A stretch of 63,939 nt of DNA, filler included, from Octopus bimaculoides (Eukaryota), in assembly GCF_001194135.2 (NCBI RefSeq). It is 6 parts of 6 records of this genome, joined end to end, with 100 filler letters (N's around TTAATTAATTAA, not from the genome) between each part and the next. Parts side by side here need not be neighbours in the genome. Positions count along the whole stretch, not along the records: positions 27,901 to 47,385 come from NC_068984.1; positions 47,486 to 58,131 come from NW_026299746.1; 4 more parts are not named here. One strand, given 5' to 3'. The position numbers and the translations under genes were made by a program. Shown here piece after piece: positions 3,585 through 63,701 of the stretch. The first letter of the stretch is position 1. Each line of letters starts with the position of its first letter. A model generated the notes under the pieces. That model was not told where the DNA came from. It was given only the letters and a program-made list of their open reading frames with translations, and searched no databases.

Positions 3585-3830
3585 ATCTTGTGGTTAAGAG
3601 CACGAGCTACTAACTCCAAGATTATGAGTTCGATTCCAGGTAGTGACCTGAATTATGATAATGATAATAATAATAATAACATTGAAAAAAGCTTTGAGAA
3701 TGAGAACACAGGTTCGCATTTTTCCCAAGAAACCAAATGAATGCTGGTGGGTATATCAGCCAAAATGTTGTGCTAACAACAAACAAGATGAGGACAAATA
3801 TCCATCAAATGTAAATAATGTAGACAGTAA
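3585..3830 (+). mobile_element. tRNA-headed SINE-like repeat with (AAT)n linker and degenerate hammerhead tail
   Basis: GTGGTTAAGAGCAC head, B-box GTTCGATTC at 3628-3636, (AAT)n linker, then a body homologous to 3345-3580. The hammerhead boxes are mutated (CAAATGA...AAAA). Confidence 0.7.
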
Positions 3831-14427: not shown

Positions 14428-14640
14428 GGAGGTGAGCTGGCAAAATTGTTACCATGCCAGAAAAAAAATTAGCAACATTTATTTCAACCATACATTCTGA
14501 GATTCAAGGCTGCCAGAGTCAACTTCGACTTTCACCATTTTGGGATTGGTAAAATAAGTACCAGTTTCACAATGGGGATGAGGCAATCAACTTAGCCCGC
14601 TCCCTTGAAATCGTTGGCTTTGTACCAACATTTGAAACCA
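14428..14640 (+). mobile_element. tRNA-SINE family A (GCCTTTCATCC..GTCGATAAA..AAGTACCAG core), old copy, tail type 1
   Basis: GGTGAGCTGGCAAAATTGTTA..TTCTGAG..AAAATAAGTACCAG..GGCTTTGTACCAACATTTGAAACC; homologous to 28008-28210. Confidence 0.7.
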
Positions 14641-28007: not shown

Positions 28008-28210
28008 TAAGGTGGCGAACTGGTAGAATCGTTAGCACGCCGGGCAAAATGTTTAGCCGTATTTCGTCCGCCTTTACGTTTCTGAGTTCAAATTCCGCCG
28101 AGGCTGACTTTGCCTTTCATCCTTTTGAAGAATAAGTATCTGTTGAGCACTGGGATCCATGTAATCGACAAAACCCCTCTCCCGAAATTGCTGACCTTCT
28201 GTCAAAATTT
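28008..28210 (+). mobile_element. tRNA-SINE family A, tail type 1
   Basis: AAGGTGGCGAACTGGTAGAATCGTTAGCACGCCGGGC..CTGAGTTCAAATTCCGCCGAGG..GCCTTTCATCC..AATTGCTGACCTT. Confidence 0.85.
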
Positions 28211-28379
28211 AAAACCTGTTAGAGGTTTTGCCGACGAGATGCGGTAAATAAGCACACACAAAAATTATAAATGAAAATAAATTTAGAAGTATAAAATGTA
28301 TGTTGGAGAAATATGGGAGAAATGTGACACTGAATATCTCTTGATCTGTCCAGTATGAAACTAATTAGCAGACGGTTCT

Positions 28380-29724: not shown

Positions 29725-30305
29725 TTGTCCAACATGACCTTGCTCAGAATAGGCAGTGTAAATGTATGTGGCCTGGGGTCGCTTTCGAATCAGGGCCACC
29801 TACTCAATGACCTCAGGTCTCTAAGTTTAGATGTCGTGGCTGTCAGTGAGCTATCATGCCCGTTTTCGGTGAATACGAGATTTACTTATCTCCATGAGTG
29901 GGGTGAAATTGCAGTGTTGTTCAAGAGAGGACTGGATCTGAAGATAATGGTCATCTCCCTGGACCCAGAATGTAAGTAGGCGGCCCTGAATATGAACAGT
30001 AGCAACGGGGGCGCTTTCAGATTGGTGACTATTTATACTCCGACAGGGGTAGAAGATCCAGCTTTCTCCAGATATCTGGAAGTTTTCCGACCAACGTCTC
30101 CACCTTTAGTGCTAATGGGTGACTCTGGGATGTCATCTTCGACACGTGCTTAGATCGTGTGATCGTGTGGGTCTAGCTGTTAGAAGTGCAAAAGTTTCAC
30201 AAACTTGCTCAGACGTTTTCAACCGTCTGACAAGTACCGACTGAATTTGCCGAATGTGCCAGTGTGGACATGGTCAAACCACATCGGGTCATCTAGGGGC
30301 ATCAG
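29725..30305 (+). pseudogene. L1/Tx1 ORF2 apurinic-type endonuclease (APE) domain, 3'-truncated
   Basis: LRIGSVNVCGL..LLNDLRSLSLDVVAVSE..GEIAVLFKRGLDL..FRLVTIYTP..LVLMGD..VWTWSN; these are the typical EEP/APE motifs of L1-clade ORF2. Confidence 0.85.
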
Positions 30306-30564
30306 AAATAACTTTTTTAATGAGTGAATTATTTTTTCAAATCTAGTAAATGATGTATATAAAACAATTTTGTCATATATTTGTCGCAAGGAAATTTTTT
30401 ATTTATTTACTTTTCTTCTCGAAACAAGAAAAAAGAGCAATAACAAAAACAAAAACATCAAAAGAACTGTACCCACATGAAAAGAAGTAAAATTTAATCT
30501 CTTCATAAATGCCTCTATAATAGGTACTTGTAGTTACTATTGCTGCTGCTGGCATTGCTCTTCT

Positions 30565-30770
30565 TCGCAGAATCGCTAGCACGCAGGGCAAAATGCCTAG
30601 CGACATTTCGCCCGTCTCTAAGATCTGAGTTCAAATTCCGCCGAGGTAGATTTTGCCTTTCATCCTTTCGAGATCGATAAATTAAGTACCACTTGAGCAC
30701 TGAGGTCGATGTAAATGACTTATCCCCTTCCTGGAATTGCTGACCTCGTGCCAAAATTTGAAACTACCAT
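30565..30770 (+). mobile_element. tRNA-SINE family A, tail type 1
   Basis: GCAGAATCGCTAGCACGCAGGGC..CTGAGTTCAAATTCCGCCGAGG..GCCTTTCATCCTTTCGAGATCGATAAATTAAGTACC. Confidence 0.85.
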
Positions 30771-32799: not shown

Positions 32800-34110
32800 A
32801 AAACTGTAACTGCATCATTTAGTTGAATAAAAAATGGAAAATAGCCACCTAGTTTTTTTGTTTTCATTACAACTTATTCAACTTTTGTCAAGAATTTCAA
32901 AATGCAACAGCAGCAAGGAAACGGGCAGCGACAATACGGAGTGAAGAAGTGGTGCTTTTCCCCACGTATAGAGGTATGAGAGCAATGAGAATTACTGTCG
33001 AAGGAATCCCACCAGAAATCGATGTGGCTTGGGTGGCAGATGCTGTCCTGGCCACGAAAAGGGATTGTGTAAACTGGAGAGGACAATCACTGAATATGGT
33101 AGTACAGAGATCGAAAGAAACGTTGAAAAGGATCACGATTCAATAACTATGGAAGAAGCAGTAATGACAGTCAGTGTGGAAGGAAGAGTTCCATGCTGCT
33201 TTAAATGTGGCCTGAAGGGCCACATTAGAGCTGACTGCACGATAAGGTCAAGAAAAACAGAGGAAAAACAACAAGATAATATGGAGGAGGATAAAGAAGA
33301 GAGCTTCAGAAAGGAAAAAACCAAAAAAAAAAAGAAGAGAAAGTAGCGAAAACAGAGGAAAAATGGGAAAAAGTTACAGGAAGAAAAAGGAAAAAGGCAA
33401 GTGAACTAAACTGTAAACCCCATTCCACACCCATCTCACCCACACTCTCTCAGACCCACCCTCTCCCTGCAGACACCAAGCCTACTCATTCTCATCCGAC
33501 ACAAAATCAAAAGACAAGCATACACAAAGAAGCTCAAAACTCCTCCCCCAAGGCAAAAAAAACTGCTGGGTTTGATAATATTGAGGAGTATCACAAGTGT
33601 GTGGTACCTGATAAGAAGCAGGAGGAGAGAATACCTGCGTTTAAGGTCGGATATAGTTCTTGGGAGGTGGACTGCAGCTGGAACTCACTTCCAGGTTTCG
33701 CAACTTATGATAAGTGGTTAGAGGAGACGGGAATTGGTCTTTTAGAAGGATAAGGGTTCAAAAGGTAGGGAATTAGGCTACTCGTAAGTGGGGAGGGTGG
33801 TTCCATTTCCATTTTTCATAATCATGTTTTCATGCATTATATCATACATTTTTGCTTTATTTTATGCTTTATGTCCCACATATTTTACTGTATTGTCCCC
33901 TCTGTGTGCCCGGTATGGAAAATAATTAAAAAAAAGCCAACGAAACGTTTGGTGAGGAAATAACCAATGAGTGGTCAGCTCGAAAATGGTCTAAACAATT
34001 TCGCAGTGGATATCTGAGCCTTGAAGATCGTGAGGTAGTGGATGCCCATCTGTCATCGATGACGGTCAATTAGAACAGCATTATGCATCAATCCGTCGTC
34101 TTGTGAAGAG
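32800..34110 (+). mobile_element. Mariner transposase N-terminus (HTH region), interrupted by the insertion at 32922-33935
   Basis: Left piece MENSH..LFNFCQEFQNATAARK continues after the insertion as ANETFGEEITNEWSARKWSKQFRSGYLSLEDRE.SG.PSVIDD. This matches the mariner pattern A.AAR.I...FG...V...W...F..G..SLED..RSGRP. Confidence 0.7.
32922..33935 (+). mobile_element. 5'-truncated ORF1-only (half-L1/HAL1-like) retroposon with poly-A tail
   Basis: VLFPTYRGMRAMRITVEGIPPEIDVAWVA..MTVSVEGRVPCCFKCGLKGHIRADC (CX2CX4HX4C), basic and low-complexity linker, C-terminal ..WNSLPGFATYDKWLEETGIGLLEG* ending near 33752, a ~170-nt 3' UTR and an A-tail. No APE or RT. Confidence 0.75.
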
Positions 34111-35107: not shown

Positions 35108-35915
35108 GTTACCAGTGTGGCGTAAGGGGCCACATGAGAGCAAGGTGTCCCCAGAACGACGATAAATGTGAAAAGGAACAACAGCAGCAGGGTGAAGAAG
35201 CGACGAACCCAATATGTGAGAAGTGTCCAGAGAAGGTGGAGGAGGAGTATACGGTGGTGAATAGGAAGAAGAAAAGGAAAGAAGACGTGGACTCACCGCC
35301 AAAGAGTCCACTAAAGAAAAGAAAGGAGAGTAAACAAGAAGCACAACATGAGATACCAACAACATCAAAGGAAGCCATCGCGGAAAATCAAGTGGGACTA
35401 CAGAAACAAACAAATTAAAAAGAACCAAAACATAAATGGCATATGTAATATATGCAAAAGGTACAGAGATAGAGAAGAAAATCACAAAAATGAAATCAGT
35501 GATAAGAGTGAAACTAACGACGGAATACTATCCAGAGAGCACCAAAGCAATTGTTATTGACGACGAGAGATGTGAAAAACTATGAGAACTGTGCGAAAAG
35601 AAGATAGACCCAACGGGAGTACACGTCGAGTAAAAAGAAAAAGAAAAATAGTAAGTAAATATTTAAAAATTTGAAATTCCTGTAAAAACAGATGCAAAAA
35701 GGGGGAAAACAGAGGAAAAAAGAACTGATTTATAAACGTTAAACGAAAATCATTTAAATGATACTGCCTCCGAGTGGGAAACAGGTAAGCCATTTCATCC
35801 TCATTGTTATTATCCATCCTTCATTCGTACGTTCTGTGTTTCGCGTCCCAACTGTGGTGTTTTGTCCGTCCTTGTGCTGTCCCTTCTGTGTTACGGCCTG
35901 CGTGCCGAATAAAGG
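35108..35915 (+). mobile_element. 5'-truncated ORF1-only retroposon; paralog of 36720-37555
   Basis: YQCGVRGHMRARCPQNDDKCEKEQQQQG (CCHC knuckle). Colinear with the next copy; AATAAA at 35908-35913. No ORF2. Confidence 0.8.
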
Positions 35916-35919
35916 AAAT

Positions 35920-37555
35920 TCAGTAGCAGTAATCTTTTTCATTGTTAAATTGTTGAACTGTTGTTGGTGTTTTTTTTTTTTTCCTGTGAAATTGTAATTG
36001 CTTTCTTCCCCATTTATGGGTGAAGTAGATAAAAAGCAAAGGCTGGAGTGCGAACCAGTTCCAGCCGGCAGCTATGCCTTCAGCCACTGGAAGGTTGACA
36101 GCTGACATGTAGCAGGTACGAGTGATAAAGATGGAGCAGAGGAAGTTGAAGGAATTCAACAGACTCATAGAGAAGGATGGAACCAGTTTGAGGTTGACAC
36201 CGCCGGAAAATTTAACAACGATCGTGATGAAGCGGACAGTGGTGTATAGAACGCTGTCCACAACAACAAAAAGAATAGAAATAGACACAGTAGAGGCTAT
36301 AGAGGAGTGCTTGAAGGAGGTAAAAAGCCTCACAACATTCTATACGGGGGGAGGAAATACGGTACAATGGAGGTAAGTTTCGCTAGTGAACAAAAAGCGA
36401 TAAGCCACTCCACTGTAGCGCTAAGGACACCAGAGTGGGTACTTCAGCCATCTTACTGTGGCAAACGAATGACCAGAGTAAGGATTGGCAGAGTACCCCT
36501 GGAGAGTGAGGAGGCGTGGTTGGTGGCATCCATCTTGTATAATATGGAGGACGACATAAAAGTGTTGAAAGTAATGAGGTCAAATGAGGTAAACTAGTTG
36601 GGATACGGCCTCGAAGTGGCAATCCAGGTCAGTTTACAAGACTTGCACAAGATAGCGGAGGAGGTAATACTGCCAGAGAATGATAAATTGAGAGTAGTGG
36701 TGGAGGGAAGACCTCCAACCTGTTACCAATGTGGCGTAAGGGGACACATGAGAGCAAGGTGTCCCAAGAACGACGATAAATGTGAAAAGGAACAGCAACA
36801 GCAGGGTGACGAGCAGGAGCAAAATGCCGAAGTGACGGCCCCAGTATGTGAGAAGTGTCCGGAGAAAGTGGAGGAGGAGTATACGGTGGTGAAAAGGAAA
36901 GAAGACGTGGACTCACCGCCAAAGAGTCCGCTAAAGAAAAGGATGGAAAGTAAACAAGAGGCACAACATGAGACACCAACAACATCAAGGGAAGCCAACG
37001 CAGAAAAACAAGTGGGACTGCAGAAACAAATAAATAACAAAGAACCAAAACATAAATGGCGTATGGTAACATATGCGAAAAACACAGAGATAGAGAGGAA
37101 AATGACGAAAAGAAATCAGTAATAAGAGTAAAGCTAACTACAGAATACTATCCAGAGAGTACCAAAGCAATTGTTATTGACAACGAGAGATGCGAAAGAC
37201 TACAAGAACTGTTCGGAAATAGAATAGACCCAACGGGAGTACGCGTCGAGTTCGACGACTTGCCGCCAGTAGTATAGTATGAGGACCTGTTGTCGTACAT
37301 AAAATGGAAAACAAAGTGTAAGTAAATGATGCAAAAAAAGAAAAAGGAGAAAAAAAGAGAGAACTTATTAAAAGCATTAGACTAAAAACATTTAAATGAT
37401 ACTGCTTGCGAGTGGGGAGCAGGCAAGCCGTTTCAACCTCATTATTATTGTTCCTCCTTCATTCGGTCGTTCTGTGTTTTTGTCTCCCACTGTTGTATTC
37501 TGTCTGTCCTTGTGCTGTCTCCTATGTGATACGGCCTGTGTGCGGAATAAAGAAA
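35920..37555 (+). mobile_element. Near-full-length ORF1-only (half-L1/HAL1-like) retroposon, ORF disrupted
   Basis: ATG at about 36017; pieces RGRKYGTMEVSFASEQKA..RVRIGRVPLE..LRVVVEGRPPTCYQCGVRGHMRARCP..EFDDLPPVV*, with frameshifts and one in-frame stop (36595-36597). About 270 nt of 3' UTR to AATAAA at 37546-37551. Confidence 0.8.
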
Positions 37556-37649
37556 ATCAGTAGTAATAGAGTCATTGTACGAGTTCTCAGTTGGAGTCAG
37601 TGTCAGTTACGTGATATATACGAGTTCGAGTTAATGTCAAGGAAAACGT

Positions 37650-37970
37650 TTCAAATAAATACAGATAGATAGATAGATAGATAGATAGATGGCTTGGTGG
37701 ATCGATAAACAGACAGATACATAGATAGAGAGATAGACAGGTATATACATAGAGAGAAACATAAGAGAGAGAGAGAGAGAGAAAGAAAGAGAGAGAGAAA
37801 GAAAGAGAGAGAGAGAGAAAGAAAGAGAGAGAGAGAGAAAGAAAGAGAGAGAGAGAGATGGTTTGGTGGATCGTTAGACAGACAGACAGACAGACAGATA
37901 GATAGATACATAGATAGAAAGATAGATTGACAAGTATATACATAGAGAGAGAGAGAGAGAGAGAGAGATA
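37650..37970. repeat. Compound (GATA)n/(GA)n/(GACA)n microsatellite with an internal duplication
   Basis: Directly visible; GATGG(C/T)TTGGTGGATCG occurs twice. Confidence 0.9.
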
Positions 37971-38637
37971 CTCGGTTAGGGTTGATACGGATCTAAACAA
38001 CATAGACTTCATAATGTGTGATATGAAAAGCAAGGCAGCTATTTCTAATAGGCCTAAATGGCAACGTACAGTCTTACTGTTGGCTCGTATAGCTTTAAAT
38101 ACAATGCGCACGCAAGGACTCTCTCAAGAATGCAGCCAAATCTCCCTGAAATCATATTCTAGCGTCTTAGACGCAAATATCTGAAACAGAGAGCTCTGTT
38201 TCATCAGAGCTAACCTAGTACTAAACAGCAACAGAAAAAATGACAATAGCAGTATAATCGGAAAAAATATACAAATGGTTTACCAGAATCACCAGTCTTT
38301 CTGCTGCTGTTGTTGTTGATGCTGCTGTTGCAGTTGCTCTCGTCTTCGCTGCCGTCTCTTAGTCTTGAATGAGCAGGTAATCCCATCTTTATCTTTTATT
38401 TTTTCATTTATTTGTTTTTGTTTCTGGTCTCAATGTGTTCTTCTATTCTAAGCACATTATAGTGTGTTTGGGTGCAACTGACTAATAGTCCTCGCTGTAC
38501 ACGTGGTCCGATGTTAACTTCTTAACCGGCCTTCTTTACACTCGCTTTTGACACGCTTTGCTGATATTCCAGTCAAAAATTATACACGCTCTTGTTTCTG
38601 TAATTTAGTAACGCAAAAGCAGGGTTGAACAATTACA

Positions 38638-39040
38638 TCATTTTTAGACATAATCTCCTTGCTTTCCATTGCACTTTTTCCAGTTATCCACAAGTTTGCT
38701 TATTCCATCGGTTTCCAGCTGTTCGCGCAGCCATTTATGCTTCCTGCACTTCGTCCGTAGCAAATCGACGACCTCGTAATAGGTTTTTGAGTGGTCCAAA
38801 GAGGTTATTGTCCGAAAGGGTGTTCCAGCAACTCGAAGCCCAATTTTTCAATGGTTTCGACGGTGTGGGAGGCCGTGTGTGGACGAGCATTGTTGTGTAA
38901 CAATAACATTTGCTTTGACAAGACCTCGGCGTTTGGTACGAAATGTTGGTTTCAGTATGTTGACCAGCATTTCACTAGAGACTATACGAGATCTCTCTCC
39001 CAGGTAATGTTCCAATATAGACCTTTTGCGTCCTAAAAAT
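38638..39040 (-). mobile_element. Mariner transposase C-terminal (DD34D region) fragment
   Basis: Minus strand: LKPTFRTKRRGL..LLLHNNARPHTASHTVETIEKLGFELLEHP..NLFGPLKNLLRGRRFATDE..WLREQ..DGISKLVDNWKKCNGKQGDYV. Confidence 0.9.
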
Positions 39041-41882
39041 CAGTTAGCATAACTTATTCTGCATACAATAACAGTACATCAAGAAAATATGATTTCTGGT
39101 ACTGGTGATTACACGCTCTTTTTAACCTCTACCTACCTGACCTTACATACAGGTAATTTCTTACACAGGACTTCATACCTACAAGCTGCTTGTTTTCTCC
39201 GAATACAGTTGTATAATTTCTCCAACCCTACCCCAATCACCGAGAAACCTGGCCTCTAAAACAATAGACTTAAAGTAGAACCTACCACATCATCATTTCT
39301 TTTCTTACCAATAACACCAAAGAACACCAAATATAAACAACCAACATATTCAATAATATAAACATTCCATACTCAAGTACAATACAAAAATACTAGAAAT
39401 CACCTACAGCACCTCTATAAAACTCACAGCATACATAGAGCACAGAGTCAAAGAAGCAAAATACCGCACAAATGATCTGAGAATACTTACAAATATCATA
39501 TCTGTATAAACTTAGGAAACAACAGTACTAATACGAAAACAATTTATGTCCTCCGTGTATTATGCTTTAGCCACCTTCACCATCCCAATCTTTTCAAAAA
39601 AAATGTTATAACCAGCAAGAATCCAAATTAGTGCTTTTCACATCATCCAGATGTATGAGAACAGATGGAAATACTACTGATACTGATATTATTCATATTT
39701 CGTCAATGCAGCTATGGTAGCTGGTTGAGTTAGTGAATGGAAATATGTTTCTTGGCTGCGTGAAGAAGTAAATGAAAGACATCCACGAACATTTAACAGA
39801 AGAATTTATTGTTTCACATGAAGACAAACTGTGTTATCCATTTACAGTTAACAACAGCAATAAATACAGACTGGAAGAGAGATTCTACTCTGAGATTACA
39901 GAAAGCTATTGACACGACAATCTACCATTTGCCCAACATATCTGAAATCAATTGCGCTATCTTCATGACGACGGAGGTTCTTTGTCATCTGTTTTGGCCG
40001 TCTGTCTGGGCCATCTGCCGGGAAAGAATGGAGATACATGTTGCTCAGCCAGCTCAACATACTGGAAAGAGTTTAGGCATCAAAAGCGGTCTTTTATAGG
40101 GTACAAGAAAAAGATTCTAGAAGATTAACTCACACCATAGCTTGACGCTGATAGGTTCCTTAATAGAACCATCACGTGAAACTATAGTGGTTCGGTCGTG
40201 GTGTCTCACCAACTATCCAGTGATTAGGTTTCGAATCACTGCTACACTACCTACACAACGAAAAAATACTCAAAAGAAAATTCCACATGCATATGCGAAG
40301 ATAATAAGCTCCGGCCTTACAATACATTTCTCTACATGTTCAATTTCTTTGAAAATCTTATTCGTTAACAATATCTTAGAATAACATCCTAAAATCACTA
40401 GTCAGACACTCCATCCAGACAAACAAAAGCACATTCACAGAAAATAGTATCAATATCAATATTTCGTCAACATAAATGCTGCCGAGAAGCACACCACCAG
40501 ATATAAGTGCAAAAGAACAGCATTTGTAGTGCTTCAAATCCACCTCTGCTCTGGCTTCTACCATAATCTACAAGCAAACAGCAAAAGACTGGACAGTGAT
40601 ATAAGCCCAACGCGTCCAAGCTGCAACATTTCACCTCAAACGATATACTGCTTTATAAACTACTGCAATAAACTATTATGCGCAGCATATCCTCAACTAT
40701 ATGGAGATATATGTAAATACTCGATATGTGGATCGTGTCCGGTCATTTGACAGACTAACTGAATTCCTTAGGTTTATTCAAACGGGGCTGACTGAAGCTA
40801 CATAACAACTAATAACCAAAGTACATTACTTATGTGGCAATATTTTGCCTTGACGATGGTTATTGATTCCATCGTATTACTGTTTACATATTGAATGTGA
40901 AAAACTATATCAACCAAAATTGATTTGAATCTTATATACTTTAAAGAATTACGTATTTATTGTCTATTAGAAATATAACATCAGATCATTCTGTATTTAA
41001 TTTTTGACCACGTTTCTATAACCTCATTACAATAACAGGCTTCTAAAAGGATATTTATCTTTTAAAATTGCTGTCTCCCATTATCTTCTTCCGTCATTAA
41101 AGTCGATGCCTTCAATTTAATGAAAATGGATGTCACTTAGATTTTGAAAGCCATTCAAATATGGAACAATAATTGTCAATCCTAAATTTGTCAATCACAA
41201 GTGTCTTTGCAGAAAAATCAATAATTGTCTATACTAGGAAATCTTTCAAATTCGTTTTCAGATAATACGTCTTTATTTTTATTTGCCAGAAAGAACATTT
41301 TACTTTCTGAAAAATTTATTTTTTATCTTCGTAACAAGAGATTGTTATTTGGAGTAAGATTATTTTAGTTTTTTTTCTACTCACTTCTAAAAGATTTGGT
41401 TGCCCTAAAAATAATTTATATATATATATATACATATATGCATGTATGTATACACACACACATAAATACATACTGGATCTAGGTTAGAAAGTGACTCTTT
41501 CTCTATTGGCAAGAAATCTTGAAATAAAACTGAATAACAACACACATACATACATTTGAAAGTATAAGTAACGTTTTCATACATACTTTAAAGAGGAGTA
41601 AACTGGAAATAAAGAAGGGAGTGATATAGCACAGTCACTGCAGTAGTACACTTCACTTCAAAAAAAGGGATCGTGTCCTCTCTCAATCTTCCTTAAATTC
41701 TGACCAGACAATTCAATGAAATTATCCAAGTAACCAGTGACAGAAGTCTTTTAGTACACGCGAGCACACACATAAACACGCACGCATAAACACACACAAA
41801 CATGCACACATAAACACGCATTAACGCAGACATATATGCATTTGCATACATACCGACACGCACTTACCGATGCATGCGCGCG

Positions 41883-41932
<50 letters not shown>

Positions 41933-42667
41933 ACGTTTTGGAAGAGAAATTGCTACAACAAAATAAACAGAAGTAATCTGATAAAGTAACGATAGAAGAG
42001 AACATGGCAGCAAAATGGAGAGTAAGACTTCGAATTTTATTGCTGGACCCAGTGTTTCTCAGATTATACTCCGCAATGGTTGATATTAACTTTCATCGTG
42101 TGATAAACAGGTACCTGTATTATATTGACTTAGTTAAATCAACTATACTTATATCCACATTACAAAATGAAATTTTCCATTATGCGCAATCGAGAAATCC
42201 ATATCACCATCAGCAGCAACATGAACTACAACAACCACCGTTAAATACGTTTGACGAGTTTCACAATTCATTCATAACCATGAAACATCATACTGAATTT
42301 CATTAATCTATAATTTCAAATCATTTGTTGAACCGATTCTCTATCTGCCTCTAAGCATTTCACACAAATACAAGAATACTGACATCGAAAAGATATTTCA
42401 TCCCAAAAAATTACTCGAACAGAAACGGAATCTATTGCAAATTCAATTACAGAAAGAAACAAGTAAAATTATATAAATTTACTATAACCAGAATTTTCAT
42501 TTATATTGTTAATGAAATTTAAAACAATAACTACAAATTAGTTTTATAATCTTGATTCATTTTTATAAAAACAAATTAACAAAACTAGAATTTCTTTTCC
42601 TGAGATTATTCTTTATATCATCTTCATTACCACCATTTTTGTTATACATATACACATATACACAGTA

Positions 42668-42990
42668 ATCTATATATATAAAGATGAGAATGTGTGTTTG
42701 TCTGTCTGTCTGTGTGAATCTCTAAAACTCAAGAACTACTCAACCGATTACATTCAAATTTTACACATGCCTTATTTAGGGTCCATATAGTGTCATGGGC
42801 CAAAAACGTTTCAACTTTTTGCCTAATGCGAGCCCAGAGCAATCTCTTATATCTTCCACTATTTCAGTATTACGTGTCAAAAGTGAAACAATAATATCTC
42901 TCTATTGTAATGTCAGATACTTTCACTTTAATAGTTTCCCTATTAATACTGAAACTATTAAAGTGAAATTATTATCTCACATATATACAG
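42668..42990 (+). mobile_element. Non-autonomous Helitron-like element, 5' part
   Basis: Starts TCTATATATATAAAG, followed by (GTCT)n and AACTACTCAACCGATT.CATTCAAATTT, which is typical of small Helitron/HINE-like repeats. The 3' end is lost in the gap. Confidence 0.55.
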
Positions 42991-43092
42991 GCNNNNNNNN
43001 NNNNNNNNNNNNNNNNNNNNNNNNNNNNNNNNNNNNNNNNNNNNNNNNNNNNNNNNNNNNNNNNNNNNNNNNNNNNNNNNNNNNNNNNNNNN

Positions 43093-43130
<38 letters not shown>

Positions 43131-43174
43131 TGTATATGTATAGATGTGTATGTATACATGTATACGGGACACAT

Positions 43175-44068
43175 GAGAGGTGCAGCAACATCAAAGGAAG
43201 ATGAAGATTAACCGAGAAGATAGCTTTCTCGTGCGGCAGATGCACAGGGGTAATAAACACTACAGATGCTCAGAAAATAGATTCTATCACACTCTAGGGG
43301 AAGAAACTAGAAGTAGTTGATAGCTTCCGTTACCTAGGTGACCAAGTAAGTAGTGGGGGTAGATGCTCTGAGAGTGTTACCACTAGAATAAGAATAGCCT
43401 GGGCAAAGTTCAGAAAGCTTCTACCCCTACTGGTGACAAAGGGCCTCTCGCTCAGAATGAAAGGTAGATTGTACGATGCATGTGTGCGAACTGCCATGCT
43501 TCACGGCAGTGAAACATGGGCCGTGACTGCGGAGGACATGCGTAGGCTCGAAAGAAATTAAGCTAGCATGATCCGCTGGATGTGTAATGTCAGTGTACAC
43601 ACACAAGGGAGTGTAAGCGCTCTGAGAGAAATGTTGGACATAAGAAGCATCGGATGTGGCGTGCAAGAGAGACGTTTGCGCTGGTATGGTCATGTACTAT
43701 GGATGGATGAGGAGAACTGTGTAAAGAAGTGCCACTCCCAAACAGTTGAAGGAATCTGGGGTAGAGGTAGACTCAGGAAGACATGGGATAAGGTAGTGAA
43801 GCATGACCTTCAAACGTTGGACCTCACAGGGACAATGACGAAAGACCGAGAACTTTGGAGATATGCTGTGGCTACGAAGACCCGGGAAATAAAGTGAGTT
43901 TACGGCTGTATCCTACACCAGTTTCGCATAACTAGACCCAGCCCATTCAAAAGTACCTTGGATCGTAGGGCGACCTGCTGTGCTTGAGGAGACCTATTGA
44001 GTCAAGTACATCAACATCAAAATGAAAATCAAATGGAAATTGTAGTTGTGATACCCGTGTTGGCGGCA
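43175..44068 (+). mobile_element. RTE LINE: RT C-terminus plus start of the 3' UTR
   Basis: KLEVVDSFRYLGDQVSSGG..RIRIAWAKFRKLLPLL..KGRLYDACVRTAMLHGSETWAVT..IRWMC..RRLRWYGHV..GRGRLRKTW; two in-frame stops. The ORF ends at 43897. Confidence 0.92.
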
Positions 44069-45305
44069 NNNNNNNNNNAGACTGGCTAGATTTTTTCGTA
44101 GAATGGGGATAAACATCATTTATGAAGACCATATTTCTGTAGCTAATTTCTTGGATGTGACATTAGATATTAAAAATGAGACATATAGACCATATCATAA
44201 ACCTTTAACTTACCTAAAATATATAAATAAATCGAGTAACCATCCTAGAAGAATTATTGATAATTTAGTTTTAAATATTTCATTAAGACTCTCCAGATTA
44301 TCTGCTAATGATAAGATTTTTAATAATGAAGCTCAATTCTATAATTCGGCATTAAATAGGGTAGGATACAAAGAGAAGGTTTACTATATTGAAACTGATA
44401 GTAACAACGTTAAGACAGATAGAAATAATAGGTATAAGAATAAACTTAGTGGAAATAAGGAAGACAAAACCCAGGAATTTCCATAAACGTAACATAGGTA
44501 ATTTAAAATTTTTTAAGAATTATACTAGTGACTGTGATAACACTAAAGATGATAATGTTTGGTTCATAATCCCTTTTGGTAGGAATATTAAAACTAACTT
44601 GATTGCACAGTTTAGAGAGGTGATAAGCAGACATTTCCCAAAGAATTCACACTATGATAAAATTATTAATACACATACCATTAGATTTGGTTTTTCAAAC
44701 ACTATGAACTTAGCCCAAATAATTGCAGCTCATAGTTTTAAAATACTTAAATCAAAAGAAATAGAGGTGGATAGCGATATGAACCCTGATATAAATGATA
44801 ATAATAATAATGGCGGTATTAATAATAGTGGTAATGATAATAATAATCGGAATTTGATTACAGTAACAGAGGTCAACCCCAGAAGATTGAAGCTTGAAGG
44901 CCCTAATGCGAGAGTTAGAAATGTAGTTTATCAATGTAAGGTAAGGACTCAGACAGATGTTAGCCGATACCTGGGTGTGCTTCGGGACAAATATGTAAAA
45001 GAATATCTAATCATTATAGTACCTTTAGAGATAGAAGTAAAATAGCAAGCACTAGCCTTAGTAAATTCATCTGGGAACTGAAACAACAAAAAAAAGCAAT
45101 ATTCGTTAGAATGGTCGGTCATCGGGAGGTCGTTCCCGTACGACAAAGGTAGGAGATACTGTTCGTTATGTAATTTAGAACTATATTTCATATTATTCTC
45201 TAAGGGTAAGTTGGTAAATAAACTAACAAATAATGCTCTAAAATGTACACATTTTCTAAGACACACATTTCGCTGGTTTAAATAAATTGCAATATGAACG
45301 GGTAT

Positions 45306-45820
45306 TATAGTACATTATACTATAATAGTTGGTCTTTAGGCAGGTCATTCCATTATAAAAGAGGGTTGTTTATAATTTATAGTACATTATAGTATAGTAT
45401 TAGATCTTAAGGCAGGCCATATAAATGTATAACTTAACAATAGCAGTTGTGTTTTTTGCATAAGCTTCTAGAGATAAGATAACATAGTATAGATCTCCAT
45501 CATAATAGAAGATTGTTTATAATTTATAGTACATTATAGTATAATATTAGGTCCTAAGGCAGACCATATCAATATATAACTTACCAATAGCAGCTGTGGT
45601 TTTTGCAAAAGCTCCTAGAGATAATATAGTATAGATTCCCATTGTAATTGAGGGTTGTTTATAATTTATAGTACATTATAGTATAATATTAGGTCTTAAG
45701 GTAGGCCATATCAATGTATAATTTACCAATAGCAGTTGTGGTTTTTACAATAGCTCCTAGGATAATATAGTATAAATTTCCATTGGAATAGATGATCGTT
45801 TATAACTTATTAACATTATT
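45306..45820 (+). repeat. Tandem array of ~141-147-bp units in the PLE 3' region (3 full plus 2 partial)
   Basis: The anchor TTGTTTATAATTTATAGTACATTATAG starts at 45366, 45513 and 45655, with a variant at 45796. Confidence 0.9.
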
Positions 45821-45980
45821 GATAGGATTACGAGGGGTTGTCTCCCCTTAATGGACCTTTGCATAGAAGGAACTTATTTAACGAGTCATTTAACGACAAA
45901 TTTGAATATGGACGGAACCTAGAGAAGATGTCTTGATATTTACCTCTTGTTCTTGATCTTTGTTTTTTTGTTTGTTCTTA

Positions 45981-46082
45981 AATGTATTTCCCTGGAGACG
46001 TGTATGGCAAATTATATGTTTGACTTAAATTTGACAGTCAAATATAGCCTTATACAGAAATGTTGACATAGGAATAAATTTC
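45981..46082 (+). ncRNA. Variant type I hammerhead ribozyme at the PLE 3' end
   Basis: Stem I TATTTCC/GGAATA; core CTGGAGA (45992-45998); long stem II TGTAT-GGC..TTTGAC/GTCAAA..GCC-ATACA; GAAA (46057-46060); near-palindromic stem III ATGTTGACAT; predicted cleavage after A46070. Confidence 0.6.
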
Positions 46083-46132
46083 AATGATAATGGATATTAG
46101 CGTCAAAACTCTCTTTTAAATTTAAAACTTTC

Positions 46133-46170
<38 letters not shown>

Positions 46171-47352
46171 ATACATCTATACATATAATCTATACATATG
46201 CATCATCATCATCGTTTAACGTCCGTATTTCATGCTAGTATGGGTTGGACGGTTATATATATATATAGATACTATGATAGATACTAGTTATCGATAGATA
46301 CTAGTTATATATATGTAGATACTATCTATGACTTCTAAGTAAGTGTATGTACCCATGTAATAGATAAGTTTATAAAGCTAGAAATTTTTAGTGGTGTGTT
46401 TGGGTAAACTGACCACTCATCACAATGATATCAAATTACAACCTTATTCTATATTTCAACGAGTGGTCTAGCTAAGAAATCATTTATGACCACTACAATC
46501 TCATCCAGGGCAACATCCTGTTCTCAACTTTATAGTATTTTATCTCTTTATCTCTTATTCTACTTTGTTTTATTTCTTTTGTTACTTTATTCCAATTTTG
46601 CTAAATCTTATTTATATATGTATCTAACTTTATTATCCTTATTTATAAAGTATATTAGAATTAAGTAGAATTTAATTATATTTTAAAATGTAGAAATACA
46701 ATTGGCCGGTTTCATATTAAATTTTCAAAAGTGTATAATATATGAAGCTGTGTCACGAAATTATATTTATTCTAACTATTGTTATAAAGTTAGTTTGTTT
46801 TTCAAGTAGGAATTTGGCTCAGAGTGCTATTCCTTGACATATTGTTTAGTCAACATTCATGTACTAATTGCTGCTATATGAATTATGGTTTCCTTAAGTA
46901 GACATTCTACAACAACTAGTTCATAGGAAAAGGAGAATCATGTAATACTAGTGCATTTTATAGCCTGTTCAGCAGTGGCTGGTATTTTTGTAATATATAT
47001 ATATATCTGTAAAAATATGTGACAATTATTCGGTAGTCATGATAAAACTCCGAGTTTGAGATACCGGGGCAGAAACCCACGCCGCCATCTCTTCAGTTAT
47101 TTGGCCACTGAAAAATTCTATGAAAATGACCGTTAAACAAAGGGAAATTACTGTGTGGTTGACCGTTATTAAGACAAAAGAGCTATTAGAATGAGTACAA
47201 CAAATCCAACAGCTGTTTCTGGGGGATCAGTGGTCCAAAATAATGATTGTAAATTGTCTATCGTCTTACATCTGAGGTGTTGACAAAGATTATATACATA
47301 CATACACACACACACACATATATACATATACATAGACACATATATACATATA

Positions 47353-47385
<33 letters not shown>

Positions 47386-48169
47386 NNNNNNNNNNNNNNN
47401 NNNNNNNNNNNNNNNNNNNNNNNNNNNNNTTAATTAATTAANNNNNNNNNNNNNNNNNNNNNNNNNNNNNNNNNNNNNNNNNNNNATATATATATATATA
47501 TGCGTGTTTTTGTGTCTGTATGCATATATATTTATTATCTATACACCGGTTTATATAATATTTGTGTGTGTGTGTGTGTGTGTGTGTACATGTAAATTCC
47601 TGCGTATTTAAGAATTTGTTTCAGTCTCCGTCTCTATGTGTCTGTCTGCCTCTGTGTGCGTGTGTGTGCATATACATGTGTGTGTGTGTATTTGCATATG
47701 TGTACAAGAATAAACGTATGATATACAAAGGGAGAAACGTATCTTTAAACGATGCACTTAAAACTGGAGGAGTATAACAACTATGTAAATAATGAGTAAC
47801 ACTGAATATATAGAGACTTAGTACATTCTTCATGTTGCTTCTTAACCACATGGTTCTGGGTTCAAACCCATAGTATGGCACTCTACGCAAATGTTTTCTA
47901 CTATATTTGCTAGGAAGAAACTGTCGTATATATACATGTACAGTATGCGTAAGATATTTGAGGATAGATTTATATTTATAACAAAAACAAAACAGATATT
48001 TAAAAACTGCTATAAGGATAAAAGTAAACCTTCTTTTCTATAATGTAATTCAATAAAGCCACCTTAACCTTGAACAGATGCTTCTATATAAAATCTAAAT
48101 CATCTACATGCTTGAATCAAGTGGTCCTGGTGCATTAAAACAAATATCAAATAGATTATGGCTGGTAGA

Positions 48170-48800
48170 TAGCAGTTTACTCTGAGTAGCCACCCTCAGC
48201 TTCCACCAGGGTGTCATACGGCTCTGGAACCTGATGAATTCATTTTTCATTGTATTCCTGGGTACATCTTCGAACACCTTTTGATCTTGGTCATCAGCTT
48301 GGCCTTGATATTGCAGACAAAGCGGTTGATATGTCTCAACTGCCCCCTACATATAGCATTCCATTACAATCAAGGAATTAGGAGACCAGTATTTAGAGCT
48401 GGTTAAGTCGTACAAATTCTCTCACAACCACTTTTGACTCATTCTGGAGTTATCGCAAGGCAGTATGACAAGAATCCAAATCTTTTTCCCCACACATATA
48501 ATCTTTCAGCAGCAACCATCTCTAGCTACGATTGACCACAGTCTCTGACAGCTTCACATACTCTCCTGAACTGAGCCCTATTCAAAGCTGTGGCGGGGAA
48601 TTCCGGCGTGCGGGTGCAATCAAAACGCCTGCTGGCTTCGGCGTCTTAGTCTCCGTGGTAGCTATTTGTGTTACGCCTTACAGCCTTTACGATGTTTACA
48701 GAGCATTGCGCAGCAGACATAACGTGGGCATTTTGATACTCGCCGCAAATCGGTCTGATAGAGGTAACTTTTTTCCAATGCTCAGGTGGCATTCAGTCCT
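48170..48800 (-). mobile_element. Internally deleted Tc1/maT-like (DD37D-type) transposon
   Basis: Minus strand: N-terminal VMSAAQCSVNIVKAVRR..RRFDCTRTPEF; C-terminal KDLDSCHT..QKWL.ENLYD..YWSPNSLDCN..VGAVE..CNIKAKLMTKIKKVFEDVPRNT..VEAEGGYSE*. Confidence 0.8.
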
Positions 48801-49035
48801 ACATATCAACCAGATTTTTCTCAACTACAAATTTAATATTTATGCTCTCCATCGCTAGTCACTGTTCACCAATGAATCAAGTTATTTCTAAAGAAAGGAG
48901 ACATAAAAATAATTGCTAAATTTAGCCCTAATATGCTCTGTGTATGAGTGTGTATATGTGTGTGTGTGTATATACATATATATACATATACATATATCTG
49001 CATACACACAAAAATATATTCCTACATTGATATAT

Positions 49036-49078
<43 letters not shown>

Positions 49079-49124
49079 CATAGACACACATATATTATAT
49101 TGTATTATATTATATTATATTATG

Positions 49125-49173
<49 letters not shown>

Positions 49174-49585
49174 ATAATTACAGAGGTGTGTATTTGAACA
49201 CACTCACACACACGTACACACACGCATATACATATATACATATACATACTAACATACAAAAACCTCAAAATAAGATGCATTCTATTCAAAGCTATGAGTC
49301 TTTAAGTGAGAGACAAATTCTTCACCTCGATATAACTTTACAGACAACGGTTACATTCTCACCGACGAGATTTGATTTAAGAATCCTTCAAGTGTTAAAT
49401 GAGAAGCAATAAACAAACTTTAAAAGGCATAACCAATGATGTGACGAAATAAATCACACACAATAATAATAGTAACAACAACAACAACAACAATTTCTTT
49501 TATTTGCCGCTTGGGCAACAGACATAAAGTAAGGGAAGTTTAGCCAGTATAAAATAATAGAAAAAGATGGTATACATAATAAACG

Positions 49586-49820
49586 AAGGCGGCAAGTTGG
49601 CAGAATCATTAGCACGCCGGGCGAAACGCTTAGCGGTATTTCGTCTGCCATCACGTTCTGAGTTCAAATTTCGCCGAGGTCGACTTTGCCTTTCATCCTT
49701 TCGTGGTCGATAAATTAAGTACCAGTTACACACTGGGGTCGATGTAATCGACTTAATCCCTTTGTCTGTCTTTGTTTGTCCCCTCTATGTTTAGCCCCTT
49801 GTGGGCAATAAATAAATAAT
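49586..49820 (+). mobile_element. Full-length tRNA-SINE family A with L1/Tx1-like tail (type 2)
   Basis: AAGGCGGCAAGTTGGCAGAATC head, GAGTTCAAAT B-box, GCCTTTCATCCTTTCGTGGTCGATAAATTAAGTACCAG core, and tail TTTGTCTGTCTTTGTTTGTCCCCTCTATGT..GTGGGCAATAAA. Confidence 0.88.
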
Positions 49821-49879
49821 ACATAATAAACGAAAAAAAGAAGTGTACATTGTATATATTAGTAAAAAAAAAAAAATAA

Positions 49880-50400
49880 AAGGTGATGGCTGTGTGATTC
49901 TCCTGGTACAAAGCAGCTCCAAAGACTATCGAAGAACCCCATACAAGATCTTTTTGAGCACCCAAGACAAATGCCCTCTACAAGTCCTCTTCTCCGACTC
50001 ATAGTTCTGTACTTTGTGTCATTCACTCTTGCTGTTTTTATCACTTTCTCCCACCAATCAGTAAATTCGCTCGGGGACAGCATCTCCCTCTTTACTTTCA
50101 ATTTCCTTTTCAAGTAAAACTCGAAAGACTCGATGAGGGATCTACATAAGAGGAAAGTGTGTCCCCTCATACTTTCCAGCCTCGTCCGCCAGACCACCTC
50201 TTTTGCAATAGCAACCTGGCAAAAGAAAACTGCCTTGCTTCTACATTAAAACAAGGCGGCGAAGCAACCAGCTGAGATCTGTCCCACATGCGACAAAGGC
50301 TGTTTGACGTAACTTCACAAGTAAGCAATGCTCCAACACTGCGCGAATGCATGCAAAACAGTTTCGTCGATATGTGTGCATCTCGGGGAAATGGAGATGA
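49880..50400 (-). mobile_element. L1/Tx1 ORF2 C-terminal fragment
   Basis: Minus strand: Cys-rich piece C..CSVGALLTC..LWD, then VAIAKEVVWRTRLESMRG..LIESFEFYLKRKLKVKRE.LS.SEF...W..V; this is a Tx1-like ORF2 end. Confidence 0.7.
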
Positions 50401-50429
50401 GTCGATTACATCGAAATTTTTGGGGAGTG

Positions 50430-50560
50430 GACAAATCGATAAGATCGACCCCAGTGCACAAGAGGTACTTAATTTATCGACCCCGAAAAGGTGAAAGGCA
50501 AAGTCGACCTCGGCGGAATTTGAACTCAGAACGTGCAGACAGACGAAATGCAGCTAAGCT
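50430..50560 (-). mobile_element. tRNA-SINE family A, partial
   Basis: GGTACTTAATTTATCGACCCCGAAAAGGTGAAAGGCAAAGTCGACCTCGGCGGAATTTGAACTCAG is the reverse complement of the core. Confidence 0.85.
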
Positions 50561-50719
50561 AAATACCGCTAATAATAATGAATTTGCGTGTGTAAACTGG
50601 GAATGCGTACAATGAGTTTCTCTGCCCTAGGTGTACGGAAAACACTCGGCGAGAAATCGAGAAATGGAAGAAAATTTGAAGAAGAAAAAAACAACGTAAT
50701 AATGATGATGATGATGATG

Positions 50720-50757
<38 letters not shown>

Positions 50758-52568
50758 TCAGTAAAATTGGAATTGACAAGTTTGAGAAATATTTCGGAGA
50801 AATTGAAATTGACATGAGGGGCCAGTGGAGATTTTGAGGTTAGTACTTAGGTGTTAAGTTTCGTGGAAAGGGACCTTGTGAAACCTTTGACAAGTTGCTT
50901 TCCACTCTCACAGGATTAACCGGAGCAAGTAAATTCGAGAGCTCTGAGAAATAAAATATAGCAATAATAATAATAATCACTAACAGTTGTCCATTATTTC
51001 TAGATGTTTACAAATCAATCGACGTTTGATGCTTGTTTTTGTTTTGTTGGGGTCATCATTCGATACGGCTCGCCATTCATCTTTCGTTTAACTGAATTAG
51101 AAGGAAGATTATTTATTATTTATTTTTTTTCATATAAATCCGCCCGCTATTTCCTTGTTTACATTTGTGGTTTGTAATTCTTTACTTCAGAAATTTTACA
51201 ACATCAGACGTGAGATATATTTAGACTTGTAGCTTTTCTACTTCGTTTAGAAGTTGCAATCTTGAGATTAGTGAAATCTCAATTGCTATTTGAATATTAG
51301 AAAGGCAAATACTTCGTCGAGATTATCAAACTGAAGAAATAAACGAGAGTTTTATTTTTCCTTCTTGTTATATCTTCTTTATCGTTTTTCATTAAGTTTG
51401 AATGAATTCATAATGATTTTAATTCTAAAGTTTAAAGCGAAATAGTATTGGAGAGATTGTAAAAATAGTATGCGCACACAGCATCTTAATGCCAAGAAAA
51501 CTCCATGACAACAGGGAAGGAGAAACGCTTACGCATCGATTATCGAAACTGTTGTGAAAATTAAACTTTAAAAACAATCATTATAAATCTCTAGAATGCA
51601 TTTCGTAGAATTCAATTAAGTTTTCATCTGTAAAAATTGAAAAAAATTATCATTAATGAAGCGGAACACCATTATTCTGTATAGAGCTGAGTGGTAATAA
51701 TGCTGTCTATACCTATCTATCTAACAAGTAGACGGACTAATTGCCGCTAAGCATTTTGCCCGGCGTGCTAACGATTCTGCCCGCTCGCCGCCTTAATAAT
51801 GAAAGCTGTAGCAATGCTTCATTCCCTGACGCGACGGGCAAGTAACAACATGATCGGCCAAACTCGAGATCTTCTATGTATTCATGCATCTGTTGCGACC
51901 CAGACTGCAAAATGGATGCAACACAACATAATGCACGAAGTCCCACATGTAAGGGCCAGTAAGAGGATGGGCCGAAACGATCGTCGTAAAAAACAAAGAC
52001 TAATACCAAACCCATTTNNNNNNNNNNNNNNNNNNNNNNNNNNNNNNNNNNNNNNNNNNNNNNNNNNNNNNNNNNNNNNNNNNNNNNNNNNNNNNNNNNN
52101 NNNNNNNNNNNNNNNNNNNNNNNNNNNNNNNNNNNNNNNNNNNNNNNNNNNNNNNNNNNNNNNNNNNNNNNNNNNNNNNNNNNNNNNNNNNNNNNNNNNN
52201 NNNNNNNNNNNNNNNNNNNNNNNNNNNNNNNNNNNNNNNNNNNNNNNNNNNNNNNNNNNNNNNNNNNNNNNNNNNNNNNNNNNNNNNNNNNNNNNNNNNN
52301 NNNNNNNNNNNNNNNNNNNNNNNNNNNNNNNNNNNNNNNNNNNNNNNNNNNNNNNNNNNNNNNNNNNNNNNNNNNNNNNNNNNNNNNNNNNNNNNNNNNN
52401 NNNNNNNNNNNNNNNNNNNNNNNNNNNNNNNNNNNNNNNNNNNNNNNNNNNNNNNNNNNNNNNNNNNNNNNNNNNNNNNNNNNNNNNNNNNNNNNNNNNN
52501 NNNNNNNNNNNNNNNNNNNNNNNNNNNNNNNNNNNNNNNNNNNNNNNNNNNNNNNNNNNNNNNNNNNG

Positions 52569-52697
52569 TGGTTTCCCATCGCGCTAGAAATGGGAGTTAA
52601 ATTTCAAACCACGAAAAGGTATTCTTATTTTGGCAAAATAAGAATAGCTTTTCGTGGTTTGAGATCCAAGTCACATTTCTAGCGTGGTGGGAAACCA
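52569..52697. repeat. 129-nt fold-back (near-perfect inverted repeat); MITE-like or hairpin RNA
   Basis: Outer 24-bp arm TGGTTTCCCATCGCGCTAGAAATG / CATTTCTAGCGTGGTGGGAAACCA; inner arms TTCAAACCACGAAAAG / CTTTTCGTGGTTTGAG and TATTCTTATTTT / AAAATAAGAATA; loop GGC. Confidence 0.85.
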
Positions 52698-52817
52698 TTT
52701 AGTGGCTTTCCCTCAGTGTATAACTCTTTTCTAGGCAGTTATATCCACCATTAAATAACTGGTATGTTAATAACAATTCGTTTCATAGTTATAATGCTTA
52801 ATAGAATATATAGTCAC

Positions 52818-53050
52818 AAGTCGGCGAGCTGGCAGAAACGTTAGCACGCCGGGCGAAATGCTTAGCGGTATTTCGTCAGCCGCTACATTCTGAGTTCAAA
52901 TTCGGCCGAGGTCGACCTTGCCTTTCATCTTTTTGGGTTCGATTAAATAAGTACCAGTTACGCACTCGGGTCGATATAATCGACTTAATCCGTTTGTCTG
53001 TCCTCGTTTGTCCCCTCTCTGTGTATCCCCTTGTGTGCAGTAAAGAAATA
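52818..53050 (+). mobile_element. Full-length tRNA-SINE family A with tail type 2
   Basis: Same head, core and tail as 49586-49820. Confidence 0.88.
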
Positions 53051-63607: not shown

Positions 63608-63701
63608 TGTTGGAATAATGTTATTGACTATGAGTACGTTCTCCCAGGTTGGATTTCAGATGGTACCCTGATGTTCAGAGGATTTAGCACTGCTGCTGAT
63701 G

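Follow-up and report, generated by a model that had tools for sequence, protein, structure and literature searches.

In Octopus bimaculoides (GCF_001194135.2), a tRNA-type short interspersed element (SINE), elements that keep only the first open reading frame (ORF1) of a long interspersed element (LINE), and complete LINEs of the L1/Tx1 type share a 3' end of about 55 nt: a T/G/C motif, a predicted 4-bp hairpin and AATAAA. The elements considered here lie in a 63,939-nt window, a pack of six joined stretches from six records. The three tiers very probably depend on common machinery, and many copies sit at base-exact sites within other repeats, where the target follows descent. We favor, at a probability of about 0.58, a reading in which ORF2 proteins recognize the tail across the clade, a helper endonuclease nicks the site, and flank bases carried on the RNA would pair with the nicked strand. 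A first-pass annotation of the window had proposed a three-tier system of LINE, half-LINE and SINE driven by one stringent, 3'-end-recognizing reverse transcriptase (RT); the three tiers exist, but no single RT is singled out as driver, since the tail is common to dozens of families. The window's ORF1-only elements map to G000:C4 and both tailed SINEs and the C-terminal ORF2 fragment to G000:C4889, different records, so closeness within the window carries no meaning.

Within the window, likeness was scored as z against 2000 dinucleotide shuffles. The tail of the SINE at 49588 aligns collinearly with the ends of two tandem ORF1-only elements at 35861-35913 and 37499-37551 (z 8.1 and 8.7; 38 identities in 52-53 nt with one gap against the former), and the SINE tail at 52993 scores z 6.7 and 5.6 against the same ends. 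When AATAAA was held fixed and the rest shuffled, z was 5.1 and 5.9 (0/2000). The likeness seen earlier at a third ORF1-only end, 33871-33930, is a partial match (z 5.1 and 3.1). Scanning both strands with the SINE tail placed the best non-self positions at 52991 (197), 37491 (124), 35861 (124) and 33881 (98), over a background of at most 94. As the annotation had it, the SINE copies at 14428, 28008 and 30565 have other tails (z -1.4 to 1.1 against the Tx1-type SINE tails); these resemble one another (z 5.5-8.4). All sequences it quoted were found in place. A fourth tail-like end, at 34791-34856 (+) behind a T-rich stretch, scores z 2.5 against the SINE tail and z 5.2 against the 33871 end, and is probably another truncated family member.

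Two Tx1 ORF2 fragments in the window had been pointed out by the annotation. Both are real: an apurinic/apyrimidinic endonuclease (APE) piece at 29806-30318 (+; tblastn E to 2e-17) and a C-terminal piece at 50015-50386 (-; E to 4e-21). A role as helper was not borne out for them, and the C-terminal fragment was rejected as a candidate because its own 3' end (49496-49560, -) is only weakly like the SINE tail (z 1.5, p 0.08). An 81-aa piece of the APE fragment, taken alone, gave no Pfam match. Upstream of that fragment lies a decayed ORF1 piece (28614-28828, +) similar to autonomous ORF1 (E 1e-6).

Neither of the two outcomes that the annotation had named as refuting it came about: the likeness exceeds that of shuffled sequence, and autonomous elements elsewhere in the genome do end in the motif. 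ORF1, APE, RT and zf-RVT stand together in six loci (L157, L159, L161, L163, L165 and L168), and the ORF2 domains Exo_endo_phos, RVT_1 and zf-RVT place these LINEs in the L1 group (L1/Tx1). The narrower name Tx1 is our presumption from architecture and target specificity; no named Tx1 reference appeared among the RT matches, and protein atlas and cluster look-ups yielded no clade name. Target preference in >20% of copies, which characterizes the Tx1 clade, is exceeded in a SINE-targeting family described below (37/40). Among 100 ORF2 C-termini, 30 of them reached through the window's fragment and 70 drawn from 150 zf-RVT matches, 61 end in the scored tail and 46 score at least 100. Relatives of the window's fragment (68-75% identity) carry it in 23 of 29 cases at scores of at least 95, mostly with ATC/ATT repeats behind it. 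The ATC/ATT repeats behind the tails of L062-L090 recall the microsatellite-targeting Kibi and Koshi.

The predicted hairpin held up to a fold check. We dereplicated 125 tails to 49, including 31 autonomous and 17 ORF1-only tails, with the 49761 copy representing the SINE in place of the damaged 52993 copy. Of the 49, 33 have a 4-bp stem that encloses a loop of 4-6 nt and stops 0-3 nt short of AATAAA, against 7.0 +/- 2.4 in 1000 shuffles (maximum 15). The stems, counted as sequences and not as independent events, comprise 21 different sequences (GATC/GATC, AACC/GGTT, TCCT/AGGA, GCCC/GGGC and CGGC/GCCG among them), a variety that a single inherited sequence could not reach without paired change. 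A looser fold test put 35/49 tails below shuffle (p 0.002), with 11/49 in an upstream control. A run of eight A was found at none of the 125 tail junctions. SINE/LINE pairs of the stringent type are marked by a common 3' sequence that folds into a stem-loop and shows compensatory changes; here the end is shared clade-wide and, judging from its conservation, is probably read stringently by the ORF2 proteins.

The tailed SINE is a real family. The copy at 49588 inserted antisense into the 3' untranslated region (UTR) of the C-terminal ORF2 fragment and is flanked by a target duplication of 16 nt (49572 and 49819); the copy at 52819 is 86% identical to it and has an exact 9-nt duplication at 52803 and 53051. 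The SINE body was present at all 30 loci examined with that tail, and across the tail region 40/40 scored genome matches were 96-100% identical, a figure biased toward young copies because only best matches were scored. ARAGORN called no tRNA gene and Rfam gave no tRNA match; A- and B-box-like stretches were seen by eye. Ages of SINE, ORF1-only and autonomous copies overlap: one SINE variant shows 97.5% pairwise identity and a sub-clade of the ORF1-only family at 32.9 kb 93.7%, and autonomous pairs reach 95.5-98.6% and 99.6%. The youngest SINE variant (L263-L290) has AGTAAA instead of AATAAA and keeps the stem. Tailed SINEs often stand in tandem, one having landed in the head of another at about nt 15 (9/29 incidental copies; L044, L058, L059, L178, L277 and L286). 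A literature search did not find the paper on the octopus SINEs OR1 and OR2, and MetaSINE supplement files 2-3 held no motif match.

The last 40 nt of the SINE match L093/L113 at 37/40 and the SINE-targeting autonomous family at 35-37/40 in 31 of 40 copies (z 8.9-11); the window's ORF1-only end matches that family at 27/40. The SINE tail is thus nearer to other families (35-37 of the last 40 nt) than to the window's ORF1-only ends (38/52). When LINEs ending in all 52 nt of the SINE tail were sought, 153 matches came up (a second pattern's 2 matches were left out); of 30 loci taken from them, 27 had SINE body in the flank and none had ORF2 joined to the tail. No exact donor of the tail's 5' 12 nt plus stem turned up; its 5' portion agrees with L100/L168 and its 3' portion with other families.

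The ORF1-only elements are HAL1-like non-autonomous LINEs, with ORF1 followed by a LINE 3' end and no ORF2, as in the near full-length window element at 35932. It and its tandem neighbor at 35108 are 80% identical over 860 nt by self-BLAST, with an ORF1 match at 35110-35639. The family gave 56 genome DNA matches (from 40 scored candidates) and 144 protein matches, and its relatives end alike; the 32.9-kb family has a CCHC match above the Pfam cut-off and at least 40 scored copies. We took 50 ORF1-hit loci, the 30 best and 20 chosen for long frames (two overlap). APE or RT lies directly behind ORF1 in none of them, nor in any of another set of 40, and in 35/50 the tail follows 0.4-0.7 kb behind ORF1 without ORF2 between. 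Copies are dispersed, with target duplications of 11-18 nt where both ends are intact. They are not HAL1 proper, the mammalian L1 derivative with a poly(A) end: junctions lack A-runs, ORF1 has a CCHC knuckle, and the sole ORF1 homologs found were three Octopus bimaculoides UniRef entries. The window family's ORF1 is 30-37% identical to that of loci with ORF1 and ORF2. On a quick, weakly supported ORF1 tree of 108 rows (row L170_8361, labelled autonomous in error, lies behind an autonomous element's tail), most ORF1-only copies form one group and the 32.9-kb family stands apart, which suggests that ORF1-only elements arose two or more times.

Recurring targets and what they follow

The target-site layer, which the first-pass annotation missed, is the more unusual part of the system. 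Insertions of the window's ORF1-only family lie 25-30 nt past a TATA-like box within three short long terminal repeats (LTR1, LTR2 and LTR3), and 17 of 28 loci lie at a recurring target. LTR1 is 152 nt long, with paired copies 0.45-1 kb apart, and was seen at 21 empty and 6 filled sites. LTR2 has an integrase upstream, and truncated ORF2 pieces begin at its site in 7/20 loci. LTR3, the window's own site, is empty in 19/20 loci and has its TATA-like box about 30 nt upstream of the junction. L294, L296, L297, L299, L300 and others consist of two 152-nt LTRs 0.45-1 kb apart without a long frame and look like terminal-repeat retrotransposons in miniature (TRIM), and the window's ORF1-only family uses their LTR as a target; we presume this label, and likewise the labels initiator (Inr) and primer-binding site (PBS). 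Rfam returned only microsatellite-driven microRNA noise at the targets.

Other ORF1-only families insert at nt 50 of the SINE, with a 13-14-nt duplication. This exact junction occurs 141 times (control pattern, 0), and the 30 junctions examined held ORF1 in 21 and ORF2 in none. That autonomous elements avoid the site (0/30 and 0/40) was overturned: the junction pattern had been too narrow, and a wider one led to an ORF2-bearing copy at SINE nt 50 (L466), whose family has 132 matches (control, 0). Among 40 fetched copies of that family, 37 sit at SINE nt 50, one more does so by eye, one is gapped and one lies at a near-match; ORF2 lies within 750 nt in 17, and 20 of the other 23 are mostly gap. 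L466 also carries an unrelated inserted repeat that dominates DNA searches with it. Flank clustering revealed four further targets common to the autonomous and ORF1-only tiers besides SINE nt 50, and 18 of 67 autonomous ends lie in recurring targets, with 20 more before microsatellites. The shortest products that could arise are seen at L472 and L476 (junction near 1512), where nothing but the last 25-30 nt of the tail stands at SINE nt 50, flanked by a duplication. About 1.2 kb behind one SINE-nested ORF1-only element lies a C2H2 zinc-finger frame of 527 aa (L179:3811-5391, +).

The target is not set by the ORF1 protein, because at least five scattered ORF1 lineages use the SINE nt-50 site and one ORF1 clade uses three targets. 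Nor does tail similarity predict it: ORF1-only tails that match the SINE-targeting LINE at only 26-29/40 nt sit at SINE nt 50, and the SINE itself, at 35-37/40, does so in just 2 of 29 incidental copies. Target follows descent, not tail or ORF1. Target labels cluster on DNA trees, with 4 changes versus 8.0 when shuffled (13 unlabelled rows left out) and 2 versus 6.2 (0/200 shuffles each). In the 32.9-kb family, five of six SINE-nested copies group as a clade (97/96) nested among copies that sit at another target; this clade has a near-identical tail up to AATAAA, and its swapped 5' leader is also found on other SINE-nested lineages.

The nested insertions are independent and do not stem from one amplified composite, because three different tail types occur among the SINE halves that follow them; two of these halves retain their own 16- and 20-nt duplications. 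The copy of the target in front of a nested element moves along with that element; 5' target copies differ from 3' copies by recurring changes. Of 143 free SINE heads, none shows any of three variants that appear in 3, 4 and 6 of 10 heads preceding nested elements, and variant head plus leader was found 96 times versus one ordinary SINE with a variant head. At LTR1, 5'-copy variants occur in 6/6 filled and 1/21 empty sites, weak support, as they were chosen after the filled sites had been viewed. In the young SINE variant, picked by its upstream letters only, the flank starts with ACAC in 15 of 19 copies and the duplication starts there too, against 0/18 in two other variants. At the off-target copies L441 and L510, the first bases of the site resemble the usual target, and the LTR2 junctions of autonomous and ORF1-only tiers differ by a few nucleotides.

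Recognition, nicking and flank pairing

Because the SINE and the ORF1-only elements carry the same tail as complete LINEs, they are likely copied in trans by the LINE enzyme. We propose that ORF2 proteins of the whole L1/Tx1-type clade bind the tail, that the helper endonuclease nicks its preferred site, and that reverse transcription would begin 5-7 nt behind AATAAA. RNA polymerase II (Pol II) transcripts are cleaved some way behind AATAAA. Such cleavage, or Pol III run-on in the case of the SINE, may leave target-derived bases on the RNA, and priming may be productive mostly where this read-through flank pairs with the nicked strand. Full-length cDNA would then use a stretch of the upstream target, transcribed together with the element, to anneal there. 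In this way an element without a nuclease would inherit its source copy's address, and a single off-target landing could switch it. The 3' pairing step, as a checkpoint on top of helper nicking, is somewhat better than an even bet. A bolder extension is more tentative: insertion would be RNA-addressed and heritable, with nuclease-free half-LINEs and SINE subfamilies docking on any ORF2 of the clade by their hairpin tails, carried flank bases choosing the nicked site, and the lineage remembering its landing, changing address through one stray jump and overwriting the upstream target. Within that extension, one LINE clade might have the SINE as its passenger and its landing pad at once.

Several observations weigh against this proposal. 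Autonomous families with their own endonuclease lie at five recurring targets, so nuclease specificity by itself explains much of the pattern, and targets would also cluster on trees had every subfamily encountered a single dominant helper during one period. The scored tail is absent from 39 of 100 ORF2 ends (18 with gaps and 21 without), and a strict stem from 16/49 tails. The window's two tandem elements lie apart on the tree at one common target. A helper for the ACAC flank was seen at 0/67 autonomous ends and none was found for LTR1 or LTR3, with thin sampling; a polar conversion gradient in the copied SINE head was not shown, 4 of 36 heads having a non-polar variant mix. Transcript ends could not be placed from three unstranded RNA runs of one study, with depth mostly <50 along two ORF1-only elements.

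The rival to be taken most seriously, though we think it unlikely, is that site choice lies with the helper endonuclease alone. Every subfamily of ORF1-only elements would be tied to one autonomous family, flank RNA would have no role in first-strand priming, and head copying at the 5' end would be a side effect. The autonomous family at SINE nt 50 and the truncated ORF2 pieces at LTR2 speak for it, tail-only copies at L472 and L476 land on the same base, and the cited portion of Kojima 2015 (PMC4494074) holds target choice to be set mainly by the endonuclease. However, tail similarity, the sole visible route for choosing a helper, points the wrong way, near-identical tails lie at different targets by sub-clade, and the two tiers at LTR2 join a few nucleotides apart.

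Relaxed, poly(A)-type recognition as in mammalian L1 appears improbable. On that view the tail would persist through descent or for a role in Pol II 3'-end processing, and a template switch would have passed it to the SINE; AATAAA is a polyadenylation signal, an adjacent hairpin could aid processing, and the tails lacking a strict stem would be no surprise. Against this, no poly(A) occurs at the 125 junctions, the stems covary over 21 sequences, and motif and stem persist in the SINE, which is presumably transcribed by Pol III, even though AATAAA has become AGTAAA in its youngest variant.

We give still less credence to tethering of the particle by ORF1 protein to promoter-bound factors, on the model of Dictyostelium TRE5-A, whose ORF1p is described as binding TFIIIB subunits in the cited portion of PMC3159450. 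Tethering would account for sites about 25-30 nt behind TATA boxes, and the insertions into three unrelated LTRs lie about equally far from a TATA-like box; yet one ORF1 clade has three targets, scattered ORF1 lineages share the SINE site, subfamilies stay with one LTR family, and SINE nt 50 is not a start site. Chance likeness of T/G-rich ends, or one nested SINE-plus-insert composite amplified as a unit, fits low-complexity tails with a common hexamer but has next to no standing given z of 5.1-5.9 with the hexamer fixed, the existence of empty sites, and flanking SINE halves that vary in subfamily and tail type and keep their own duplications.

Features of the window

Table 1. Coordinates of tailed elements, controls and their target in the window
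Feature	Position	Tail	Strand	Basis
tRNA-type SINE with L1/Tx1-type tail	49588..49818	49761-49812	+	duplication, genome matches
Second SINE copy, same tail, stem damaged	52819..53050	52993-53044	+	86% identity, duplication, fold
ORF1-only element, nearly full length, with a short 3' UTR; its ORF1 is decayed and has a CCHC knuckle	35932..37557	37499-37551	+	
5'-truncated ORF1-only element, in tandem with the 35932 element	35108..35920	35861-35913	+	self-BLAST, ORF1 match
11-nt repeat separating the tandem ORF1-only elements	35921..35931		+	repeated at 37558-37568 (target duplication)
3' part of LTR-like repeat (target 3, LTR3)	37558..37655		+	empty-site comparison
5'-truncated ORF1-only element, second divergent lineage (32.9-kb family)	32895..33930	33871-33930 (partial)	+	
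ORF2 C-terminal fragment and 3' UTR, split by the 49588 SINE	49496..50400	own, divergent	-	tblastn
Decayed AP-endonuclease fragment of L1/Tx1-type ORF2	29734..30318		+	tblastn
SINE, same head and body (control)	28008..28215	different	+	
SINE, same head and body (control)	30565..30764	different	+	
Older SINE copy (control)	14428..14660	different	+	

Microsatellites dominate the whole-window repeat listing. Other repeats are an inverted repeat at 3382-3822 (171-nt arms, 82% complementary, 99-nt spacer) that resembles a miniature inverted-repeat transposable element, and tandem or minisatellite arrays plus a 212-nt local duplication at 45305-45819, 56767-57178 and 63066-63608. Two open frames at 44052-45045 (+) resemble part of what we take to be a Penelope-type element, namely its C-terminal RT and the region after it, and a frame at 43562-43897 (+) resembles the C-terminus of an RTE-type ORF2; a related piece lies at 13005-13259 (reverse).

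Relation to known systems

Published systems are taken here as given in the cited portions of the papers. Each part of the octopus system has a precedent; the searches turned up no published account of the combination, of a SINE that serves as passenger and target alike, or of nuclease-free elements that switch targets. An animal case of a SINE, ORF1-only elements and an autonomous LINE joined by one tail was likewise not found in the literature, Repbase and subscription papers lying outside the search. Cephalopod surveys give L1-Tx1 elements and SINEs unpaired (PMC8967140, PMC4758252), as does the text of PMC13282606, whose supplement and deposited library may hold the families described here. 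Shared tails are rare in the L1 group, with three SINEs in the survey reviewed in PMC3747384. The pairs of maize ZmSINE2/3 with LINE1-1_ZM and Chlamydomonas SINEX-3_CR with L1-1_CR (PMC3747384) resemble the octopus case in a shared end of about 45-80 nt, a hairpin with compensatory changes, and a stringent recognition that is deduced; SINE superfamilies are also known to exchange tails (PMC4824008). The octopus data offer a partner clade for one SINE expansion, and the dozens of families are a natural covariation series for what L1/Tx1 ORF2 reads.

Non-autonomous LINEs that retain ORF1 include HAL1 (L1), HeT-A (Jockey) and Ag-Sponge (CR1) (PMC5753468, PMC5786205). Like these, the octopus elements have a 5' UTR, ORF1 only and a LINE 3' end, with several origins; what sets them apart is a structured tail held in common with a SINE, the lack of poly(A), and fixed sites in other repeats. 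Dictyostelium TRE5-A.2 is a site-specific ORF1-only element that is moved in trans and needs a 3' hairpin (PMC3159450). With TRE5-A.1 and TRE5-A.2 the octopus system has in common the ORF1-only derivative, movement in trans (proposed in octopus), the hairpin and site specificity. TRE5-A, however, is position-specific via TFIIIB, is one family pair and has no SINE tier, whereas octopus has many families with base-exact sites and targets independent of ORF1.

In the Tx1 clade, whose targets include DNA transposons, Tx1L targets Tx1D, Tx1-8_Crp and Tx1-4_AMi target LTR elements, Kibi and Koshi target microsatellites, and Tx1-Mar is linked to SINEU by shared targets, ages and heads (PMC4494074). 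The octopus LINEs are similarly of APE-RT-zinc-finger type and target other repeats, with a SINE tied in by shared targets; unlike Tx1-Mar and SINEU, they add a shared tail, the SINE as target, and ORF1-only tiers that switch targets. Nuclease-free elements that both keep and change base-exact targets make the shares of enzyme and RNA-DNA pairing in site choice testable, with a bearing on the evolution of target specificity and on retrotransposon-based gene insertion tools. Co-transcribed target sequence on the RNA is known from R1 of the melanogaster type (PMC2718515) and from R1Bm and SART1Bm (PMC7265360), where, as we propose for octopus, it pairs with the cleaved target at the 5' junction or aids 3' priming. 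The R1-type flank refines one nuclease-fixed site of an autonomous element, whereas the octopus flank may sort nuclease-free elements among many sites.

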